64,000 bases of DNA, from the NCBI RefSeq assembly GCF_016433145.1, contig NC_058131.1:650621862-650685861 (forward strand), written 5' to 3'. Shown here one piece after another: positions 1 through 54,959 of the stretch. The notes under the pieces were generated by a model that did not search any database, had not been told where the DNA came from, and saw only the letters and a list, made by a program, of their open reading frames with translations. A program made the translations under genes and the position numbers. How positions within the stretch are numbered: position 1 is the stretch's first letter; every line of letters starts with the position of its first letter. This DNA comes from Gracilinanus agilis (Eukaryota).

Positions 1-441
1 TCAAGTATGTTGGTTACTTCCTGTTGGGGAGTTCCCGCTTTGAACTTGGTGCTGAAGCATCTCGGCTGAGACCTCAGGCTGCTTCCACTCTGAATGGTCG
101 TGGGTAAGTCACGCTGACTTCCTTAGGCCTACCTTGGCGTTTTCCAGACTCTCTACCTTAAGTAGGCCTCTTGCCTCTCTGATTGCTAAGGCCTTGTGAT
201 GGGCAATCTAGTTTAATTAGCCTTTTAACCCTCTCTCTCTGTCTGGGCCCCTGCAGGCCTGGACTAGCCTCTCCCTCTCTCTATTTCCCTTGCTTTCTAC
301 CCTTCCTAATTGTAAATAAACTGCCTTAAACCTGATCCTGACTTGGGTCTATTTTAATTATGGAACCAATCTGAATTATTGATTCCTGGCGGCCACACCT
401 TAAATATATATCTATATAATACCTAAAATCTCCCTCTTACA
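1..441 (+). mobile_element. 3' part of an ERV LTR in COX15 intron 8 (5' part outside window)
   Basis: AATAAA at ~314 and ends ...ctcttACA. Shares blocks (ctaattgtaaataaac, tcctgacttgggtct) with the solo LTR at 44769-45422. Confidence 0.7.
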
Positions 442-11289: not shown

Positions 11290-12504
11290 CTAAGGATTAA
11301 GGGAAGAAATATTATTTTAGCATGAAAGTGAGATCTAATATGGTAAGCCTTTACACTTAGGTTTGCTCTATGTTTTTCTGCCATATTGTCTTGTCCAATT
11401 CTTACTAAATTATAAATTCCTTGAGGATAGGGATCATATTTCATCAAACTCAAATTATTCTAGTATGGTTTTCAAAGAGCTTTCTTCACGACAACTTGGG
11501 AGATAGCACATAGCAACTAGAGGCAGCTGGATTTAGAATCAGGAAAATCTGGATTGAAGCTCTACAATCAGACACTTTTAAGCTATTTAGAACTGGGAGT
11601 TCTAAACAGGGAGTTCTGGACTGTCTAAAATGCAGTTCCTCCTTTGCAAAATAAGAATTAGATCTGAGCCCCCTTCCAAATCCTGAGCTCTGTTTTCTTC
11701 AAAGATCCTGTGAAGTCAGAGCTAAGTATCACAGATCACTTTCTTGATGTATCACTAGAAGAGATCTTAAAGATTACTCAGTCCATTCCTCTTATATTTC
11801 AGATGAGGAAAATGAGGTTCAGAAAGCTTATGAATTCTGATGAGTATTCTGTATTCACTCATTCAGCCATCAATTATTTACTTAGTTTCTACTGTTCCAG
11901 GCCCTGGAATGAATAATAGGTGTAAGAGGTAGTGAGTAGCTGAATTGGAAATAAGATCCCGGGCCTTATAAATCTAATTTTTCCGCAATTTTTCAACCCT
12001 GATATTCTCCTCAACATTTTATTTTTGTGTCTTCCCTAGAAGCAGGCACAGTGCCTATTCCCATTTTACAGTTCAGGAAACTGAACAGAGGTTGAGATTT
12101 GCCACAAGGTCTTCCAGATTTCAAGACCAGTTCAAACCATTCTGCCATCTGGTTACCGGTCCTTGATAATAACAATAACGGTTAGTATTTGTATAGCAAT
12201 TTAGGGTTTGCAAAGCGCTTTACATACATCATTCCCATTCGATCCTCAAGGAACTTACTTTCTACTGGGAGACGGGGACATGTGCACAGATAAGTTCAAA
12301 GCGAATACAAAGTAATGGTGGGGGACAGGAATGGGACAGTAAATGAATGGCCCCTCCAAGACCACCTAGGGCTCTACAATACGCTGGCTCCTCCCGGCCC
12401 CTTTCATCTCCAGTCCTCCTTCCCTCTTCACCCTGCGTGATCCCAGACCCATGCTTCTGCCTAAACCTGCTCTGATCCTGAGAGTCTTGTTGGGGCGTCC
12501 GTAC

Positions 12505-12588
12505 CCGGGGAGCCCCCCTCGTAGCCAGGAGACGGATTCCTGAACTCTTGAGCACCGCCTTTAGAGGAAGAAAGAACAACCGCAACAT
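12505..12588 (-). CDS. COX15: COX15 coding exon 1 (mitochondrial presequence, 28 codons)
   Basis: MLRLFFLPLKAVLKSSGIRLLATRGAPR is Arg/Leu-rich with no acidic residues. Phase-0 GTACGG donor is compatible with exon 2 (donor position less certain). Confidence 0.88.
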
Positions 12589-12940
12589 CGTGAACTCTAC
12601 TGCCGCTAGCCAAACACGAGTATCCCAAAGTCAATTCCGCATAACAATCTTCCCTAGCGACCCCGCGTCTCCTTCCTTCCAAAAGAGAAAAGCACTTCCG
12701 GATCGCGCAGGTCCCCGGGCAGGTCCCATCGCAGGATGCTACCCTAGTCATGTGATGACGGAAGCAGTGGTGAGGTCGCTGGAATTTGACGCCTGCGCCT
12801 GCGCTTGCTCCGCTGAGGCGCTCGCTCTGGAAGAGGTGGATCGGAGAGGCGCGGAATCGTTGGGGGCGCGCGACCCGGGGCGGAGCTCTCATCGCGCAGG
12901 CGCGTCCCAACCGCGTCGGTCCAGGCTGGTGATTGTGAGG

Positions 12941-13001
12941 ATGAAAAGGCGGGCGGTTAGCAGGGATTCTCGGCAGGGCACCTTAGTCCCGGTGCAGCCA
13001 G
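12941..13001 (+). CDS. CUTC: CUTC exon 1 CDS (61 nt)
   Basis: MKRRAVSRDSRQGTLVPVQP(E), donor G|GTAAGA; basic N-terminus as in mammalian CutC. Confidence 0.9.
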
Positions 13002-33899: not shown

Positions 33900-34800
33900 A
33901 CGGAGTCACCAGAGCAGTCCAGAAAAGGCTGAGGTTAGGCAGGTTGCGGCCAGGGGCCGCGTGGGCGGGGTCGGGCCTCGTGATTGGTGGAAATCAGGCG
34001 CCACGGGGTGGGGCCTTCCCTGGCTGAGGGAAGGCCTAAGAGCGACTCAATGTAGCAGGCCTGGGGTGACCAGGGCTCCTTGACGTGGTATTGGGCTCTC
34101 TCCCCCAGGGGGCGGCATAACCGAGAGAAACCTGCAGAGGATCCTTGAGGGCTCCGGCGCCACTGAGTTCCACTGCTCAGCTCGCTCAGCCAAGGACTCC
34201 GGCATGAAGTTCCGGTAGGGCGGGGCCTGGGAGGGGCGGGGCCGCAGGGCGCTCTCGAGGGCTTCTCCATGCAGCCCCCCAACTTTGGTGTCCTCGGTAA
34301 ATGGACGAGTGACTTGCTGAGTGACCCTGGCCACTGTTAAGGGAAAGGCAAGGCTCTCGTTTTTGCGGGAGGTATTACTTCCCATCCTGAAAGTGGCCCC
34401 CATTTCATGCTTTACGTGATCTCCTTTGCACTTCTTAACAACCATGGGGGGCTGGGCTATGGAGGGATTGGAGGCCGAGGAGGGAAGCGGCTGGCTAGGA
34501 AGTGTCCGAGGCCCTGCCCAAGCCAGGTATCCGCATTAGCCACAAAGCGGAGCCGGCTGAGGAAGACCGCTTCAAAGAGCGGAACTTGGGCTGCATCTTC
34601 TAACCGGAGACTGCAAAGTGCGGAATGTGCCGCTAAGAAGGATTGCAGAGCCCCAAGTCCAGTTCTTCTGGGCAGCTGTGATGCGGGTCTGTCACCAGGA
34701 GGGGCAGGAAAGGCTTGGGGATTTAGGGGGCGGGTGCCATGGGGGAGGCCTGCCAAACTCCTCCGAGCTAGCAAAGGGAAGGCGATAATCTGTTCCTTTA
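33900..34800. promoter_or_regulatory. Intragenic CpG island over CUTC exon 8 and intron 8
   Basis: Abrupt GC/CpG rise. GC boxes gggcgggg at 33963, ~34219 and ~34234; inverted CCAAT box tgattgg at 33981-33987. Confidence 0.65.
34109..34214 (+). CDS. CUTC: CUTC exon 8 (106 nt)
   Basis: GGITERNLQRILEGSGATEFHCSARSAKDSGMKF(R); CAG/GTAGGG. Confidence 0.97.
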
Positions 34801-34815
34801 TCATTTCTTTGACAG

Positions 34816-34927
34816 AAATACCTCTGTTGCCATGGGAGCCTCCCTTTCCAACTCAGAATATTCCTCGAAGGTAACAGATGTGACCAAAGTAAGGACCTTG
34901 TGTGCCATCGCCAAGAGCTTCCTGTAG
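34816..34927 (+). CDS. CUTC: CUTC exon 9 CDS to stop (112 nt)
   Basis: NTSVAMGASLSNSEYSSKVTDVTKVRTLCAIAKSFL*. The spliced CDS totals 819 nt (272 aa) in frame. Confidence 0.97.
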
Positions 34928-35227
34928 GATCAGCAGAAGCCCTGGGAGAGAAGTGCCCGAGCCAGGATCAAGAGTCAGGGAAGCCTGATGTCCAAGGCTG
35001 TTGGACCCAGATAGCACAGCTTTCCCCTTCTCTGGACAGGACAGGGATTGACCACACGGACCATGGAGAATCCTTCCGGAGGAGCCACGGTTGGTTGGAG
35101 AAGCCCCAGTCTCGTCATCTGATTATTCTTGCCAGCCTTCTCCATCATCATGACTAAACAGAGCTGGATTGAGACTTTGACAGAGGCTTATTCTGCCCAG
35201 AAAATGAGATTAATCGATAGGCTGGAA

Positions 35228-44430: not shown

Positions 44431-44768
44431 ATTATTGCCATCCCATCCCTGCTCTGACTCCCCATTCTCTGGAATGGAGTCCTCTTTTGTAATCAAGAAA
44501 AACAATTGAGCAAAAACAATGAACACAGGGACCAAGTCTGATGATGTTTGCAACATCCCATCCCTGTATTCTCCATGTCTTTGACAAAAAAAAGGTAGGG
44601 TGATATATTTTGTCATATTGTTATCTGGGACCAAGAGTGGTTATTAAAATTACTTAAAGCTCAAAAAAACTATTTTGTTAAATATTTCCCAATTACAATT
44701 TAAAAAATTTGTGTAAATGGAATTAGTTCATCCTCATTCATTCTTTAGACTTTAGCCACCAGGAATAA

Positions 44769-45422
44769 TGTCACCCCACCCAATTTAGAATTAAGGGGGG
44801 AGGTGGGGGAGGTGGGGGAGGTCTATGATCCACATCTGATAGTAAGTGACAAATCAAAAACGAGTGACTGCCCCATGGGCAGTCCAAAACAAAATTGAGG
44901 CTGCCATTTGTCCATGTAAAACTGGAGGTGGACGCAGGAAGTGACGAAAGCTGCTATCTTTTAAATATGATAGTAACTTCCTTTGAAGGAAGGGCTTTGG
45001 ACTTTTAAACTTGGTGTTGGAGAAGCTCGAGGGAGACCTCAGACTGCTTCCCCTTGAATTGTCACGGGGGTAAGTTAGGCTGACTCTCTTTCCTTTTTCT
45101 CTTGGCATCTCTGGAGACTCTAGCCTCAAGAGGACTCTCATCTTGGAGGAGGCCTTGTGGCTAAAAACCTTGTCTAATTAACCTCTGTGCTCCCTCTGCT
45201 GGGGTCTCTGAAGCCCTACCTGGTTAGGGCCTCCAGTCCAGGCCAGAGTTTCTCTCTCTCACCTCTCACTTTCCTTATCTTCAACCTTCCTAATTGTAAA
45301 TAAACCACCATAAAAGTCATCCTGACTTGGGTCTGTTATTTTGGAATCGAATAATCAATTTTTGGAGACCAGACTTTAAATATTCAATCCAACCAAAATC
45401 TTTCCTGTTTTCCCCTTTTACA
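44769..45422 (+). mobile_element. Solo ERV LTR (~654 bp)
   Basis: TGT...ACA termini, near-TSD aataa/aatta, AATAAA at ~45299; related to the LTR at 1-441. Confidence 0.75.
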
Positions 45423-45683
45423 AATTAACATTAGCTTAAAAGATTTTTGAGCTCCAAATTCTCTCCCTCCCTCTTGCCTCTCCCTCACCCCTTGAGAAGG
45501 CAAGCAATATGATATCGGATCATAAATGTGATGCCATGCAAACATTTCCCTATTAGCCACTTTGCGAAATACATACACATTAAAAAAAACCCACAAGAAA
45601 AATGAAGTGAAAAAGGATGTTTTCATCTATATTCAACAAAAATTCATTTAAAGAGATTTCACTGGGCTTACAAATTAGGTAAT

Positions 45684-45752
45684 AGTCTAGCAGTAGACCT
45701 GATCTTGGTTGAAATGTTGAAGTGGCTAGATGGTTGCAATGGTTAAACTGGA
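45684..45752 (+). repeat. Left copy of 69-bp direct repeat flanking the ERV-bearing insert
   Basis: 65/69 identical to 54542-54610. Confidence 0.95.
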
Positions 45753-45788
45753 TTTTTTTAAAAGGGAACTGAGAAACTCCTTCAAGGT

Positions 45789-46741
45789 TGTAAGGAGTGA
45801 TTAAGGCTTTTTGTTACTTGATCTAGCAGGGCAGTTCCCACAGTACTCTAAGGAGTGAGTGCCTTTTGGCTCCCTGAGTCAGCTTAACCTATGTGACAAG
45901 GGATAACACAGCAACTGTTCCAGAGAGAAATAAACACCTCAGGAAAAAGAAATGGCATTTTGCTGGGAATTTTACTTTACCTAGCTTCCTAGGGTGTTTC
46001 CCCTCTGGGACAGAATGCTAGAGAGAGAATGGTAGTTGATTGGAACTTGTCTTTGCCCAATCGAAATAGACTCCCTCTCTTTGAGATAATCCCAAACAGA
46101 TATCCCCTTATGACCAAATGATCTGACTGCTATAATTCTTTATAAGATAGTTTATTGAAGTGCAGGGTGATTGGATTGGATCAGGGAAAAGGGTAGCAGG
46201 AAACCCTGTCTAACACCCCAAAGGATGACAATCTTCTGCCCTTAGCCAAAGCCAAGGCAAACACGGAACTCCTCTCTAATCTAGATGGTATCTATACATT
46301 AGCTAACCCTGGGCTAAGTAATCAATCAAGGCTCTAGGATGTTAGAAGTTCAGGGTTGAGAGGTTCACTGCTGGCTCAGTACAGTCACCCTCAAGGCTAA
46401 CCCTCGAGGTAGACTGTTATATCACTGAGTCCACACAGATGTAGTTCAGGAATCCAGGAACAGATACAGGAATATAAAAGATCTTCAACAAGAATCACTT
46501 TTGCTCAGGATAAGTTGGAAATAGTCCAGGAGAAAGGTTCAGAGTTGTCTCTTCTCCAAGAGTCCAAGACCCAATCCCCCCACTCCAAAGGTCCTTTCCC
46601 AGAATATGTTGGTTTTCAGAATCCTTCTCTCACCAATATTCTATGCTTCTCTTCCTGCTTTTCCCTGTTCCTGCACATTGCTTGCTTCTTTAGCAAATCT
46701 GTCTTCTCAGTCATCTCCTTTCAAGAATACTCAACCTTACC
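45789..46741. mobile_element. Solo LTR (~950 bp) nested in the insert
   Basis: Inverted termini TGTAAGG...CCTTAC(C) and near-TSD aaggt/aaagt. Confidence 0.6.
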
Positions 46742-46789
46742 AAAGTTGGTTTTCATGAATCTTAATACCTACCTTTAATCTACTCTTAT

Positions 46790-47400
46790 TCTATTAACTA
46801 ATTCCCTGCGAAGAGCCCACTCTTTGCTCAGGGGTCTCTGGAGGTAGGATGGCGTGGTGAAATGAAGTGAAAATGAGCCAGAGTGCAAGTGAGTTTGCAA
46901 AGGCTGTTCTTTCATGCCATCTGCTGATTTTTATTTTTATACCCTTTTTTCTTTATGATCTCATACAGGTTTTGATTTTCCCATACATTAAAAATCACAC
47001 ATTAACTTTTTTTAACATTTATTAATATTCATTTTTAAAACACACATTAACTTTTGAAATATCATATGATTGGCATTTACTAATTATCCTACTGTGATTA
47101 AACAAAGAAGCAAGCTTGTCAAAAATTATTCATTACGGAATGGCTTAGTTGGAACTTTATTATTTTCAGCCATCCGAAATGTACAAGAAAATCATTTCCT
47201 AGTTAAGCATGATGGTTCATTATATTTTAACTAATTAAACCATGCATATTCTTACTTTATGCTATTCAGACCTATCATTAATCAAGAACATAGTTATGGT
47301 AGTGGATTACATCAAAGAAGATACAATAATATCAGTTTGGTCCAAATATTGTTTCAATTATAGTCTTTCATTTCACTATTCTTCAAAGGTAAGTTTGCTG
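46790..47400 (-). mobile_element. Candidate 3' LTR of the ERV (boundaries unresolved)
   Basis: Minus strand gggTATAAAAATAAAAatcagc (TATA/polyA-like) at ~46930-46946, downstream of IN; no clear PPT. Confidence 0.35.
47011..47040 (-). mobile_element. 30-bp L1 3'-end micro-insertion with 15-bp TSD
   Basis: TSD cacacattaactttt at 46996-47010 and 47041-47055. Insert reads ttttaaaaatgaatattAATAAAtgttaaa on the minus strand. Confidence 0.75.
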
Positions 47401-49099
47401 TTCTTTCTGCTACAAGGTTAATAAGAATGAAGTTCTGGAAGGGTGATTCTGTACTAATTTGTAATTCACTGTTTCCTTGATCAGTGAGAATTTGGGAGTA
47501 AATCCAGGCCAGGTACATTCTTGCTGGGGAATTTAGAAACTTGAATTAACTCAGTAATTGCTGGTTTATTGCGGGGTTGATTCTAGGAAAAGTTTCTGTA
47601 TTGTGGGGATTTGTTTAGGGGTTTATTTTGGGATAGTGAGTGGTCTGTGACGTTGTTCTTGCCATTAACCTGTATTGTTTTTCTATGTCTCCCTGGGGTT
47701 GAATAAGGACACTGATGTAAATAGTTTCAGTAAAAGGGAATGGTAGTGAGAAAAGAGTCACATTGGGGAAATTGAGTGAAACTATCCATCCTTCTGACAC
47801 CTGCTTTGTGGGTTTTTCAGAACTGCTGATGAGCTGTGCTAAACATCATGGACTTTGATGGCTTCCCACAATTTCCATAATAAAAAAACTCCCTCTACTC
47901 TATGCTACTCTATTCCTATGTAACTATCCCTAGTCTAGGGTATTCCCCAGGAAAGATATAGGTTGAGATTTGGGGTTTACATAATAACTACGGAAAGCAA
48001 AATGCAATCGTTGGGATATAAACATAAGAACATAAAAATAATCAATAAATACTACTAGTTCTGTTAACTGTTCTTACAATCCTAGACTAATACGAACATT
48101 TCTCTATCTATGCCTATCACTCTGGTAAAATAACCTTAACTATAAATCTTCCATTAACACAATTTTAGCCTTGGCTTTCACAAGAAACTTTATCTAGGAA
48201 CTTTTCTGCAAATGCAGTCTATTATTAACTAATTTAATAGCCTATGAATTGTCTATAGTAACTCTTACCCTTACAACTAAACTGTTAAAATAACATTATA
48301 ACTAATATCCCTATGTTATTTTTTTATACATGGTCTATCTACAATCTATGGTACAATATGTACAATCTATTTAGATACAATTACAAAACCTATGTTATAC
48401 GTATTTATAATATCTATAGAGAGTATGTAGAAAAAATACAGTGGTTATTCAGTTTCACCTTTTCCCTGATATTAATCAAATGGAAAAATCTATTGATCTT
48501 TCTATGTGATTAAGACCTTATGGATCTAACTAAGTATTTACATATTTATCATTATTTCAACATAAGACTCCGATTTATCTACTTGGGATCATTAAATATA
48601 TCATTTTGTGAATTGTGTAGTCTTTTTTATGTTGTGTTGCATGTGATGCTTACATCGCCTCTTCAGAATTCCTCTTTTGCTTGTTGCCTGATGTTTCTCT
48701 TCTGTCTTCCAAGTTGTGTACTTGTTGCATGTCCTATTATGTGAATATGTTGTGTTTGTGATTTGTGATGCACTTTTGTCTTACATATGTCCTAATTATC
48801 ATCTGTCCTCCTGCTATGTACCATATCCACAATGTTCAGTGAGTTTTTCTGTCCATGTCAGCTCTCCAAAGTTTCTTCTGTCTGTTCTTGTAGCTTTTGT
48901 TCATGCTTTTCCTTTGGGCTGGTAACTCTTTTCTTTTCTTCATGCTTTTCTTCCACAGCCCTTTGTCCCCTACTGAGCATTTTGCCTGTTGTTATACTTG
49001 ACTGTTCTGCAACTGATTCAGGAACTTGTATTTCATCTTGATCTAATTTTATTGTTTCTGGTTGATTTTCATTTCCAGAACTTTCTTTCTCATGTCTAA

Positions 49100-50012
49100 T
49101 TGCATGTTAATTCTCTCTATTAGTGTAAGGCTTTTTGATCTTTACATGGGAACAGTGAATCCGTGAAAGTTTTCCCAATACTTTTATAGAACTCAGTGTT
49201 AATAAAACTTCAAATGGTCTGACCAATTTGTTTTTAGTAGCAGTTTTTCTATTAAATTTCTCACATAGACTTTATCTCCTGGTGTTATGTTGTGCAATGA
49301 AAAATCCAATGGTGTGGTTTGTTGGATCAATCCCATTTCATGTAGCTCTTTTATTCTGATTTGCGATGCCTTTATATAAGATGCCAATTTGCAATCTCCT
49401 CCTAACATTGAAATATAACTCATTTTACACATTTTGCCTTGCCAGAATGGAAAAAGATGTAAGTCCCCACTTGGATGAGTTTGTAGATGAAAAAGAACTA
49501 GAGGTAGTATCTCAGTCCATTTCAAGTGAGTCTTTGAACAGATCTTCCCAATGATAGTTTTGACCTCTATGTTCTCTCAATTTGCCCCAAACTTTGTGGG
49601 TGATAAGGCTATGAAAACTGGCTTTGATTCCCAAATTTTCATAAACTTTCTTAAGCACAGATTCTGAGAAATGAGATCCATGGTCTGAATCCAGTCTGGA
49701 TGGAATTCCAAACCAAAGAATGATCTCCTTCAACAGGACTTTTACTATGAATACAGTGGTGTTCTTCTTAGCCGGAAACACTTCTGGCCATCTGTCTACT
49801 ATCACTGTCTACTATCACTAGGCAATATTTAAACCCTTTATCTCTTGGCATGTTGATGTAATCTATTTAAATGCATTCAAATGGAGTGTAAGCTAGTGGT
49901 TGACCCCCAAGACTTTTTTTTTAAACACTCCCTGGTTGAACTTCATACAAATGTTGCACTTGTTACAGACTTTGATTGCGATTGATGATATTCCAGGAGC
50001 TAGCCAAAATAA
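49100..50012 (-). pseudogene. pol: ERV integrase remnant
   Basis: HHCC (HEKGH..CNKC, His part ~50050), VDRWPEVFP, FGIPSRLDSDHGSHF, PGDKVYVR, IHCSHVK; class I (gamma/epsilon-like) signature with stops and frameshifts. Confidence 0.92.
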
Positions 50013-50745
50013 TCAAACTGCATCGATCACAGCTTGAGTCCCATAATGTCCTTTCTCATGTATTGCATTATATACATGATAGAACAACTTTATAGGCAAG
50101 ATGGGTTTGGCTAAGTCAGAAAACCATAACCTTCCTATCTCCTTAGCCCCAAAGTTCTTTTTCCATGTCTGAATTTCCAAATCATCATAGGCACTTGTTA
50201 GATCTGCCTCTACCATGATTGAAAGATTCAGCATATGTATTGGGCTTTTCCTAGCCAGGTACTTGGCTATAATGTCTGTCCTATGGTTTCCTTGGGACAC
50301 AAAGTCTGTTCCAAAGCTGTGAGCTCTATAGTGAATCACTGCAACTTCCTTAGGCAATTGTATGGCCTCAAGAAATTCAGTGATAATCTTGGCATACTCT
50401 ATCTCTTTGCCTGTAGTGATTAGGAACTCTCAATTCCTCCATATCTTTCCAGTTTAATGAATAACTGAGAAAGTATATCTGGAATCAGTGAATATATTTA
50501 CTCTTTTGTCCTTTTCTAATTTGCAGGCTTGCACCAAGGCAATGAGCTCAGCTCCTTGAGCACTCATGTTTTTAGGCAATGATCCAAACCACAATGTTTC
50601 TGTTTGTGTTACCACCACTGCCCCTGTAAATCATTCCTCTCTAACTATATAACTGGATCCATCCATAAAAATCTCCAAGTCTGGATTTATTAATGGAGTA
50701 GCTTTCAAATCCATCCTGGTTTTTTGTACCAACAAGATTGTGTCC

Positions 50746-51315
50746 TGTTAAAAAGAAATGAAAGCCCTGATAATATTTTTATATATCTCTCTATAGATCT
50801 TCCTCTAGATCAGTGATTCCCAAAGTGGGCACCACCACCCTCTGGTGGGTGCTGTAGGGATCCAGGGGAGTGGTGATGACTACAGGTGCATTTATCTTTC
50901 CTATTAATTGCTATTAAAATTTAAAAAAAATTAATTTCCAGGGGGCTAAGTAATATTTTTTCTGGAAAGGGGCAGTAGGCCAAAAAAAATTGGGAACCAC
51001 TTCTCTAGATCTTGGAGGATGGATGGTATGTAGATCTCAGAGATAATATGAATGGAGGAGAGATCAGGTGCCCAAGGCCTAAGATGGCTATAGTTGGTGA
51101 GAGGAGGAAACACACACTCCTCTCACAACAGCTATTGATGTAATCTATGCCTCTCCTCCCTGACAGGCTTGATTGATCAAGCCTGTCAGTTGTTTCCTTC
51201 TAACAGCTGCCCAGGTTAGGGATCCTTGGGAGGTTAGATAGTTAGTTAATCTCACTAGGCCCCAATCTGAGGTTGGATTAGTTGTTGATAAGGCTATTTA
51301 CTGGCTATTGGAAAC
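50746..51315. mobile_element. LTR-like insertion within pol
   Basis: Non-pol ~570 bp (including the MITE) beginning TGTTAAA; pol homology resumes on both sides. Confidence 0.55.
50811..51002. mobile_element. Charlie-type hAT MITE (192 bp)
   Basis: TIRs cagtgattcccaaa / ttgggaaccactt; perfect 8-bp TSD ctctagat (50803-50810, 51003-51010) matching the NTCTAGAN preference. Confidence 0.93.
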
Positions 51316-51894
51316 GTTGTTATCTGACTACATATTGATTCTCCCTTTCCTCACAGTTATGTATTGGTTCTCCCTTGAGTAGTAAATCTGGGAGAATTGT
51401 TGCTGGATTCAACACATTCCATCTTTTTAAAGTGATGTTCTCATTGTTCAGCAACATAATTTTATATTGGAAAAGTTTCTGCTGGGTGAAAGCTTGCAGA
51501 TTGCTTCCAATTGATAGGCAGAATAAACACTCAGTTTGGATCTTAGCACTAGATCTGTTGACTTTTGGATCATTAGTGCTGTTGCCGCGATGGCTCTTAA
51601 ACATGGGACCATTCCTTTTGCCACGTTATCCAATTGTGCATTATAATATGCCACTGGTCTAAAATTTGGTCCTAAGGTTTGCACTAGGACTCCTGATGCT
51701 ATCTTTTGTGCTTCATGGACAAAGAGATGGAGTTCTTTGTTGTAATCAGGGATTCCCAAGGCAGGGGCTGTTATTATCGATTCTTTTAGCTCAGCCAATG
51801 CCTGTAGATGTTAAGCAGTGAGTTTCAGAAGTTCTGTCACTTCCTTTCTTGTAAGGTCTGTGAGACATTTGGTTATTTGACTGTAACCAGGAAT

Positions 51895-52801
51895 TTATTG
51901 TTTGCAGAACCCTGTGACTCCTAGAATCGCTTTAAGTTGCTTTCTGGTTTTTGGCACATTGAGCTTTTGGATATCAGCAACCCTTTTCTTGGATATCTGC
52001 CTCCTCCCCCTCACCAAAATGAAACCGAGGTATTCTACTTTTTGAATACACCATTGCAATTTTGATTTATACACTTTGTGACCACTTTTGTAAAGTTCAC
52101 AGAGAAGCTTGGTATTGTCTCTGAAACAGACTTTCCATGTCAGACTTGTGAGCAATGTATCATCCACAAAATGGACAATGACACTTTCTTTAAACACAAT
52201 GGATTTTAGATCTTGCTTCAAAATTTGCAAAAGACACTCCCAGATTTGTACCACCCTTGAGGCAAATGGCACCAGGTGATCTGGGTTCCTTCCCAGGTAA
52301 ATGCAAAGATATTTTGGCTCTCCTTATCAATAGGTATTGAGAAATATGCAGAGGAAAGATTGATCACTGTATAAAATCTAGCTTTACTTGGAATTTCTGC
52401 AAGAATACTTGTGGGGCTTGGGATGACAGGGTGAGGAGACTTGACCACAAAATCATTTATAGCTCTTAAATCCTGAATGAATCGCCATTGTATGTTTTCT
52501 TGGGCATCAGGTTTTGCTTTTTTGGTTGGCATAGTGGGTGTGTTATACTCAGATATAGTTGGAACCAGGATTTTTTGCTCCAGCAAGCATTGGATTATAG
52601 GTCTTATGCCTTCTGTGGCTTCTTTGCTAAATTTGTATTGAGGTATTTTTGGTAGTATTCCTTGCTTTACTTTGACCTTCACTGGTATTGCAGATTTCAA
52701 CAACTACATCTGTTGAATGTTTAGCCCACACCCCATCTGGTATTTCACTGGGAATTTCAAAAATTGAACTTGTCTCCTGTTTTTGCTCATCCTCCAGTTG
52801 T
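51895..52801 (-). pseudogene. pol: ERV reverse transcriptase remnant
   Basis: YNTP, WRFIQDLRAIN, YFSIPI..FAFTW, LPQG, HFVDD (52159-52170), KVEYLGF; frameshifted. Confidence 0.95.
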
Positions 52802-53191
52802 TCACCCAAAAAACAATGGATAAAGTTTCAGTGCATCCTTAGGTAAGTATAGAAAAATTTTCTCTGTTGGATTACACTGAATTGTCACACCAATTTTACA
52901 TAGAAAATCCCTCCCTAAGAGATTTGTCGGACATTCAGGGATAAGTAAAAAAGTGTGGTCCAGTGTCAGAGGACCTAAAGTTACCATTTTAGGTTTAAGT
53001 TTTGGTACTCTTTGAGTTTTCCCTGTAGCTCCCATCACTTGCACTGATCCCACTATTTTACTATTGTCAGGAGATGTTTTTAATACTGATCTCATTGCTC
53101 CTGTGTCTATTAGAGCTGGATATATTTCCTCTCCTACTTTTATCATTACAAGAGGTTCAATAGTATTAGGATGTTGGAAAACCTGAACCAT
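52802..53191 (-). pseudogene. pro: ERV aspartic protease remnant
   Basis: LIDTGA active site and NLLGRDFL motif. Confidence 0.93.
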
Positions 53192-53203
53192 TGGTGCTTG
53201 AAG

Positions 53204-54541
53204 TTAAATTTTTCCCAGATCCAAGTTCTCTATTATCTGAGTTGTAAAATTTTGCTCTGAATTCTGTTTTAAGGATTGATTTTTCAACCCATTTGCAATG
53301 GGATTGCTTGAGCTTGGAGACTTGAGGAATTTTGGATATTGTTTGTCTTGTTCATTGACCCTATATATGTTGATGGATTGAACTCTTTAATATTAGGGTT
53401 CAGTCTTTACCAGATCTGTGACAACCTCCTCTGCTGTATTATCCTCATTGCTTATGTCTCCAGGAGGTCTGCTTATTTGGATCTTTGGAGATATTATTGT
53501 TTTATCCAACCCCTTGAGCCATTCTACTGTTTGAATAGATGTCTTTTCCTCCACTTCAATTAAAGATTTCATTTTGGAGGAATTAGAGCACAAGATCTTT
53601 GAATCATTTACATTTGCTTTTTCATTTTGCTCTGGACCTTCAGTTCCTATCCTATGTTTTTTTCCCTTTGTTATGTTACACTCGTTCTGTGCTGAGATCT
53701 CTTTTGCTTCACTGTTATTAGAAACGGTTTCTTTGTAATCTTTCCCCTCTTAATTATTGCTCATTAATAACTGTGTTGTTTGTGTTGTATTCTTTGTAAC
53801 ATTATCTTCATCCCCTTCCTCCCTTGTTTCTTTTATCACTGTTCTATACACCTTACACTGTATTTCATTAATATTTTTTTGCATTTGTAAGTCTTCCTCC
53901 TTTTGTGCTCCATTTTTATATTTTATCTTTTTGCCCACTGTTTTTATCCCAATGTCTTTTCCCTCAGTACTATTTTCTCCATATCTTTTCCCATTACTAT
54001 TTATTTCTTCTACACCCATTATATGGCTTCATAATTGACTTTGTTTAGAAATTCCTGCAGCAATAGATGAATATTTTGCTTTCTCCCCTTGTTGGATATA
54101 TTTTCTCATTGTTTCAAGATCTAGTGCTTAGCTTTCTGAATAATTATTACTACTATAGACATGGGAACAACATTTTCCATGTTCTGACTTATTGTTGGAG
54201 TTATTATAGGTTGAATTATTTTTCCACTATCCCCTTTTATCATTTCCTGTATCTAGTTGTGCTTTAATTCTACAGTTTCTCACTATGGCCTAATTTTCCA
54301 CAGAAGAAACATTTTGGCAGATTGCTTCTTTGTCTGTTTTGCCCAAAGTCTCTTCTAGGTCTATATGCTTGCAGGTTTTTTACTTCATCTATCTCCTTTT
54401 GTCTCAACTTGTTGTTTGCCTCTTATAACTGAGATTTCAGCTACTGTACCAACTCATCCCATTGCTTATTTCGATGTTCCTTCTCCCCAGTAAAAACATA
54501 AGTAGTTGTTCTTCTTAAATCCTCTAACCCTAGAAATTCCC
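53204..54541 (-). pseudogene. gag: 5'-truncated ERV gag remnant (NC zinc knuckle plus long downstream segment)
   Basis: 54311-54272 reads CFFCGKLGH..(frameshift)..VRNC, a CX2CX4HX4C knuckle 2 nt short. In-frame TAA at 53204-53206 precedes the protease. Confidence 0.7.
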
Positions 54542-54610
54542 AGTCTAGCAGTAGACCTGATCTTGGTTGAAAGGTTGAAGTGGCTAGATGGCTACAATGC
54601 TTAAACTGGA
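54542..54610 (+). repeat. Right copy of the 69-bp direct repeat, continuing into an old MIR-like SINE (to ~54700)
   Basis: 65/69 identity to 45684-45752, followed by cttggaatcaagaagacctgaattcaaatcc...gtgtgactctaggcaagtcactta. Confidence 0.9.
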
Positions 54611-54959
54611 CTTGGAATCAAGAAGACCTGAATTCAAATCCTACTTTGGGCATTTACTAGCTGTGTGACTCTAGGCAAGTCACTTATCCTCTCTCCCAGT
54701 TTGGGGTTTAGAATTAAAGTTAGGTCTAGAGTCAGAGTTGGGTTTCTCTCTTTATTCACAGCTATCACCTTAGCTCTGGGACTCACAAGTTATTGCCTGG
54801 ATTATTACAGCCTCCTAAATGATCTCTTTGCCTCGAGATTTTTCCCACTCTAGTCCTTTCTCTACTTGTTTGTGTTTGTTATGAGGCAAAAATAGTTATT
54901 CTCTTCTGGATTTATCTTTTCCCTTTTAAACATAGTTCCTTGAACATATGATTTGTCAC

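Follow-up and report, generated by a model that had tools for sequence, protein, structure and literature searches.

Kahyo and colleagues list 8 HERV-K(HML-2) loci with duplications longer than 10 bp among an estimated 451, and describe the locus at 6p25.2 as a truncated provirus with one long terminal repeat (LTR) and a 111-bp duplication, for which the pre-integration allele was determined and rearrangement models were discussed (PMC5488345). Such HERV-K loci, including a truncated provirus with a 450-bp duplication at 21q21.1, have been ascribed in a second paper to inefficient integration completed by host enzymes (PMC4422153). Here we describe an endogenous retrovirus (ERV) of comparable form in a marsupial, Gracilinanus agilis, at positions 45684–54613 of a 64,000-nucleotide stretch (GCF_016433145.1, contig NC_058131.1, positions 650,621,862 to 650,685,861 of the forward strand), which was analyzed as a whole and is called the window below. 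Like the HERV-K loci at 6p25.2 and 21q21.1, it is a one-LTR ERV of the germline whose internal region is truncated and whose flanking host DNA is duplicated over much more than 4–6 bp. Unlike them, it is a marsupial and apparently class I element that has lost its 5′ LTR, whereas both HERV-K loci are described as having lost the 3′ LTR; its target copies are 6–7% diverged and its microhomology has been mapped. The structure is real and rare, and HERV-K loci of the same form and with the same explanation are already in print; with the present locus, ERVs that have one LTR and a long duplication are found in class I of a marsupial as well as in primate HERV-K, here with both junctions mapped, and no marsupial case came up in searches of open-access papers.

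A second body of work concerns one-ended integration in cell culture, where vectors derived from human immunodeficiency virus type 1 (HIV-1) and avian sarcoma and leukosis virus (ASLV) form a normal junction at one end while the other is often truncated, usually at short homology, and the host DNA is mostly duplicated over far more than 5 bp, reaching hundreds to thousands of base pairs (PMC5041404). The marsupial locus shows the truncation, the short homology and the long duplication, its LTR-side junction may be a normal one, and its anatomy is consistent with the model developed from those cultures. The culture integrants, however, arose under drug treatment, with a mutant integrase or from a defective DNA end, whereas the marsupial event is ancient and known from sequence, and a single fixed-looking locus settles no open question alone. 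The explanation we favor, to which we give somewhat better than an even chance, is that integrase inserted the LTR end alone and left the truncated end to host repair, which attached it 72 bases off and thereby duplicated the target; the locus is likely to be the fossil of a failed concerted integration. The features on which this argument turns are the following.

45684–45755, plus strand: left copy of the duplicated host target, with a 69-nt core to 45752 and 72 nt including one further mismatch; its right half is the head of a short interspersed element (SINE)
45753–45759, plus strand: run of seven T (T7), probably three target letters and four LTR-terminal letters; two of the seven differ from the right copy and the relatives
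45756–46709, minus strand: 3′ LTR of 954 nt, beginning with TG at 46709 and stopping at the inner terminal motif, without the 137–142-nt outer extension of its closest relatives
54542–54546, plus strand: 5-nt microhomology common to virus and target at the truncated end
54542–54613, plus strand: second, right-hand copy of the target, which runs on into the SINE

The original prediction, made from the sequence of the window, had described a 69-bp direct repeat with 65 of 69 letters identical (45684–45752 and 54542–54610), and this stands; blastn stretches it to 72 nt (45684–45755 and 54542–54613; 67/72, five differences). The right copy does lead, as had been claimed, into a MIR-like SINE, here termed CORE/MIR-like, and at two of the differences it carries the same letters, by eye, as two other SINE heads in the window, whose SINE repertoire is that of a marsupial. 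A canonical provirus would have two LTRs and a duplication of 4–6 bp; this element has one LTR, and the host duplication at its aberrant end is 69–72 bp. That the 69-mer might be a common repeat piece present twice independently, named beforehand as a result that would undo the prediction, was rejected because a search of the animal's own genome with 45600–45760, which skips very common words, returned three matches, namely the query, the other copy of the repeat and 37 nt that lie outside it, and so only two repeat sites. An assembly artefact is unlikely, given that the target copies differ at 5 of 72 positions. A contig from run X24 equals 53627–54571 without a difference and crosses the gag-side junction by 25–30 letters, under the 31-letter threshold, although this run may be the assembly's own source; the LTR-side junction is absent among the 32 pieces listed.

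Between the target copies lies a minus-strand ERV with Pfam matches to protease (E 9.8e-13), reverse transcriptase (RT; 5.8e-10) and RNase H (6.5e-10) in broken frames. It lacks a 5′ LTR and a primer-binding site (PBS) and breaks off inside gag, so that this part of the earlier description is borne out by the Pfam matches and the relatives. A gag-pro-pol order with an LTR, a polypurine tract and 4-bp duplications is found among family members, the gag matches lying under the Pfam cut-offs. Compared with solved structures, which gives the nearest structures and no tree, the RT piece is closest to the RT of Moloney murine leukemia virus (E 4e-27), followed by Pr125Pol (3e-17), which we take to be that of a foamy virus, and HIV-2 (4e-10), which points to a class I (gamma-like) ERV.

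The element had been called LTR-less, and this must be corrected. A genome search with the left junction gave 39 matches, 36 of which are copies of a repeat running from about 45758 to 46709. In one locus (L012) this repeat acts as the 5′ LTR, followed by a PBS-like stretch (by eye) and gag, and in two others (L092 and L108) it borders the 3′ internal region, the arrangement seen in the window element; 45756–46709 is therefore its 3′ LTR. Such loci are easily misread as LTR-less elements or as retrocopies made by the long interspersed element L1. On the minus strand at about 46140–46180 the LTR has two CCAAT boxes, then AATAAA, then TATAAA 12 nt on, an order that places AATAAA ahead of the TATA-like box.

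Most close LTR copies extend 137–142 nt further out and carry the motif TGTTAAAA twice, once at the outer end and once where the window element stops. With seven rows without an outer end found and L012 (a 5′ LTR) set aside from a 24-row comparison, 16 solo LTRs were scored. A perfect 4-bp duplication lies at the outer motif in nine of the 11 long forms and at the inner motif in four of the five short forms (L009, L089, L090 and L096), the fifth (L095) having a 4-bp duplication with one mismatch by eye. Because short-form solo LTRs carry 4-bp duplications at the inner motif, the 3′ LTR of the window element stops where the family uses an LTR end. Its end may be the normal LTR terminus expected of a one-ended integrant: it lies in the position where five short-form solo LTRs end, but two of the seven junction letters differ and its closest LTRs are long-form. 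One of the short forms (L009) lies within the younger clade, and the two forms need three changes on the 24-row tree. In this LTR family (loci L002–L020 and L085–L101), the outer extension of the long forms looks like an additional LTR end, with the terminal motif occurring in it again. It is a speculative thought, and a doubtful one, that loss or misuse of the outer motif makes a poor integrase substrate, which would leave such a two-motif family prone to one-ended germline integration; the locus would then belong to a countable class of fossils that gauges how often host repair completes retroviral integration in a marsupial germline.

The T7 run at the LTR-side junction would fit, in length, an integrase junction of three target and four LTR letters. 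In a sister subfamily, two of five solo LTRs start with TTTTAAA directly after a perfect 4-bp duplication. The original prediction had weighed the run as poly(A), and it may be a short poly(A) remnant; it need not be, however, five of its letters matching the target or the LTR. The corresponding explanation is that L1 proteins copied a read-through ERV RNA, with T7 as decayed poly(A), the gag end as a 5′ truncation with microhomology and the repeat as a very long L1 target duplication. It would require no substitution in T7, and L1 insertions are usually truncated at the 5′ end with microhomology. It would also suit the closest LTRs being long-form and the window copy being short of 137–142 nt of their end. 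Copying of ERV RNA by L1 is known from HERV-W, whose copies end at the R/U5 border, carry poly(A) and lie at TT/AAAA sites within 5–15-bp duplications (PMC5016936). The marsupial locus shares with these processed pseudogenes an ERV without a full 5′ LTR, flanking direct repeats and a short A-run at the 3′ junction, but it ends at the LTR terminal motif itself and has a duplication of 69–72 bp at a site without the TT/AAAA consensus.

If the inner motif were an R/U5 border, a poly(A) signal might be expected close inside it. In agreement with the earlier claim that no AATAAA stands near T7, 40 of 40 related loci are free of AATAAA, ATTAAA, AGTAAA and TATAAA over a distance of 60 nt from the inner motif; AATAAA lies 376–524 nt inside in 23 of the 40, and 401 nt inside in the window LTR. 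The exact 22-letter pattern of T-run plus LTR was matched only at the window locus, a weak test as exact matching misses many diverged copies (11–14% apart), and none of 45 LTR loci inspected by eye combines a poly(T) run at the LTR end with a long duplication. Since the element ends at an LTR motif, T7 fits host plus LTR letters, two sister LTRs start with T-runs and no poly(A) signal is near, we regard L1 retroposition as improbable.

At the opposite end, viral sequence continues beyond 54546 in 16 of the 17 related loci shown; the relatives' alignments to the window end at 54545–54546 only because the window sequence leaves the virus there. A breakpoint shared among copies, which the original prediction had proposed to look for, was accordingly rejected. 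The first letters of the target, AGTCT, equal the viral letters at the break in six of the 17 relatives, including the closest (L029), whereas only 0.74% of 200,000 randomly drawn virus–host junctions (0.0074) share at least five letters. The other end of this element is thus truncated and joined at short homology, as in one-ended integrants. The continuation of one relative (L051) past the break has a weak Gag_p30 match (E 0.031), and the window itself retains a zinc knuckle at 54270–54422 (E 0.011), both under the Pfam cut-offs, from which the break appears to lie late in capsid. In L012 the matching point lies about 1.0 kb from the 5′ LTR; the window element has therefore lost about 2 kb, LTR included. 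A splice-acceptor-like stretch seen by eye at the gag break in relatives was discounted, since no exon from further upstream is joined on.

The search for a donor provirus, also suggested beforehand, found none above 88% in five genome searches with segments of the ERV, the best candidates (at most 40) being scored in each. This bears on a further explanation, in which viral cDNA or a provirus copy was captured at a DNA break without integrase, both ends being joined by microhomology. Integrase-independent insertion pathways exist (PMC11042837), and by eye the target shares three letters (ACT) with the long-form LTR, immediately beyond its inner motif. Capture would nevertheless leave the coincidence with the terminal motif unexplained, would also need slippage for the length of the T-run and would have no close donor among the candidates scored; we consider it very improbable. 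The non-canonical insertion originally proposed is upheld in its long target duplication and, through the 5-nt microhomology, in its repair-templated branch, while its LINE-retroposition branch fares poorly.

In the integration that we favor, the viral 3′ LTR end would have been joined to the chromosome by integrase, presumably in a germ cell. The other viral end, shortened by about 2 kb into capsid, would have met a 5-base match at a distance of 72 bases, where host repair sealed it during the integration event itself. The viral 3′ end may have primed on the target at this microhomology, with a host polymerase or break-induced repair extending across the target, and copying of the intervening host DNA would yield the second target copy. 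The stretch between the two terminal motifs, the outer 137–142 nt of the LTR, would have gone missing either before integration or later.

Several observations weigh against this account. Reading T7 as an integrase junction requires two substitutions; TTTT stands at the inner motif in none of 26 long-form copies, and the usual end of the sister subfamily is TATT, so that its T-runs came from a different change. The tree of 24 LTRs places 45756–46709 in a seven-row clade (99/97) with six long forms, apart from the other short forms, which suggests that the outer LTR piece was lost independently at this locus, most simply between the two motifs. The target copies differ at 4 of 69 positions (95% interval 1.6–14.2%) or 5 of 72 (2.3–15.5%), that is by 5.8–6.9%, and are thus less diverged than the LTR is from its nearest relatives (10.6% and up) and than the nested LTR described below is from 14 relatives (7.7–11.3%). 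This gap would sooner suit a duplication that arose after the insertion, although it is not significant at 10–12% (P 0.07–0.26; at 15%, P 0.016–0.032) and distances to family neighbors overstate insertion age. Finally, repair at integration and repair generations later are inseparable by sequence alone.

Later repair would start from a normal integration with a 4-bp duplication. A break in gag would then have been mended through microhomology with an unoccupied version of the site, so that the 5′ part disappeared and the target came to be present twice; the unoccupied site may have stood on the homologous chromosome, at a time when the insertion was still polymorphic, or in a local duplicate. 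It yields the same sequence as one-ended integration and would accommodate target copies less diverged than family LTR pairs, and "pseudo-TSD" (pseudo-target-site-duplication) rearrangement models have been put forward for HERV-K 6p25.2 (PMC5488345). Against later repair, the events needed would number two or three, the gap in divergence on which it draws falls short of significance, the truncation point at 6p25.2 is common to four ape genera, as expected for an early event (PMC5488345), and a self-comparison of 43–57 kb against the whole window gave no trace of a longer local duplication. We hold later repair to be a serious but rather unlikely alternative to repair at integration. As to other long duplications in the family, the outer flanks of two relatives (L092 and L012, the only loci tested) are not repeated in the five neighboring stretches searched. 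In relatives' reads (four of 24 runs: X1, X6, X21 and X24; region 44600–54640) no empty site was seen among the 15 of 674 joints inspected, the tables being swamped by repeats. Recombination between the long repeats of such loci can restore a false "empty" allele.

The remaining parts of the element are as follows.

46710–46722, minus strand: purine-rich stretch resembling a polypurine tract (by eye) and abutting the LTR; relatives L092/L108 and L057 also align across it
46807–47870, no strand assigned: solo LTR (TG...CA) from a different, high-copy family, nested here later and flanked by a 6-bp repeat with one mismatch; L057 and L092 join 46806 to 47870
47871–49198, minus strand: 3′ internal ERV region, with no minus-strand open reading frame of at least 100 amino acids
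49199–52703, minus strand: broken pol with many stops and frameshifts, in which Pfam identifies RT and RNase H and the 3′ part is taken for integrase from its position only
50742–51345, no strand assigned: second nested insertion, later than the ERV and missing in relatives, with a miniature inverted-repeat transposable element (MITE) at 50811–51002 that has a perfect 8-bp duplication
52802–53203, minus strand: retroviral protease frame (PF00077, E 9.8e-13)
54270–54546, minus strand: 3′ end of gag, with the capsid tail and nucleocapsid zinc knuckle; Gag_p30 and zf-CCHC matches below curated cut-offs

The two nested insertions (46807–47870 and about 50742–51345) account for about 1.67 kb of the 8.8 kb, and both are absent from relatives. 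The MITE, presumably hAT-like from the length of its duplication, has short inverted ends and is 87–88% like other copies; its depth is very high in run X24 and low or nil in runs from three other species, hinting at a lineage-specific burst. A 30-nt near-perfect palindrome lies at 51160–51189 within the same nested insertion. Between the zinc knuckle and protease, about 1 kb (53204–54269) is A-rich on the minus strand and common to relatives; 53393–53749, the sole frame scanned in it, gave no Pfam match. An Rfam scan of the window gave 0 matches, and no function of the locus is indicated.

Just left of the ERV, at about 44750–45380, lies another LTR-like repeat, 67% like window positions 39–407, whose start resembles an insertion interrupting one of the related loci (L022). 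Elsewhere in the window, 12001–13000 (GC 0.54; CpG observed/expected 0.77, promoter-island-like) and 34001–35000 (0.58; 0.45) are GC-rich. Among the related loci, L010 and L011, beside an N gap, and L023 and L024, on two small contigs, have identical flanks or matches and are likely to be assembly duplicates rather than separate insertions.

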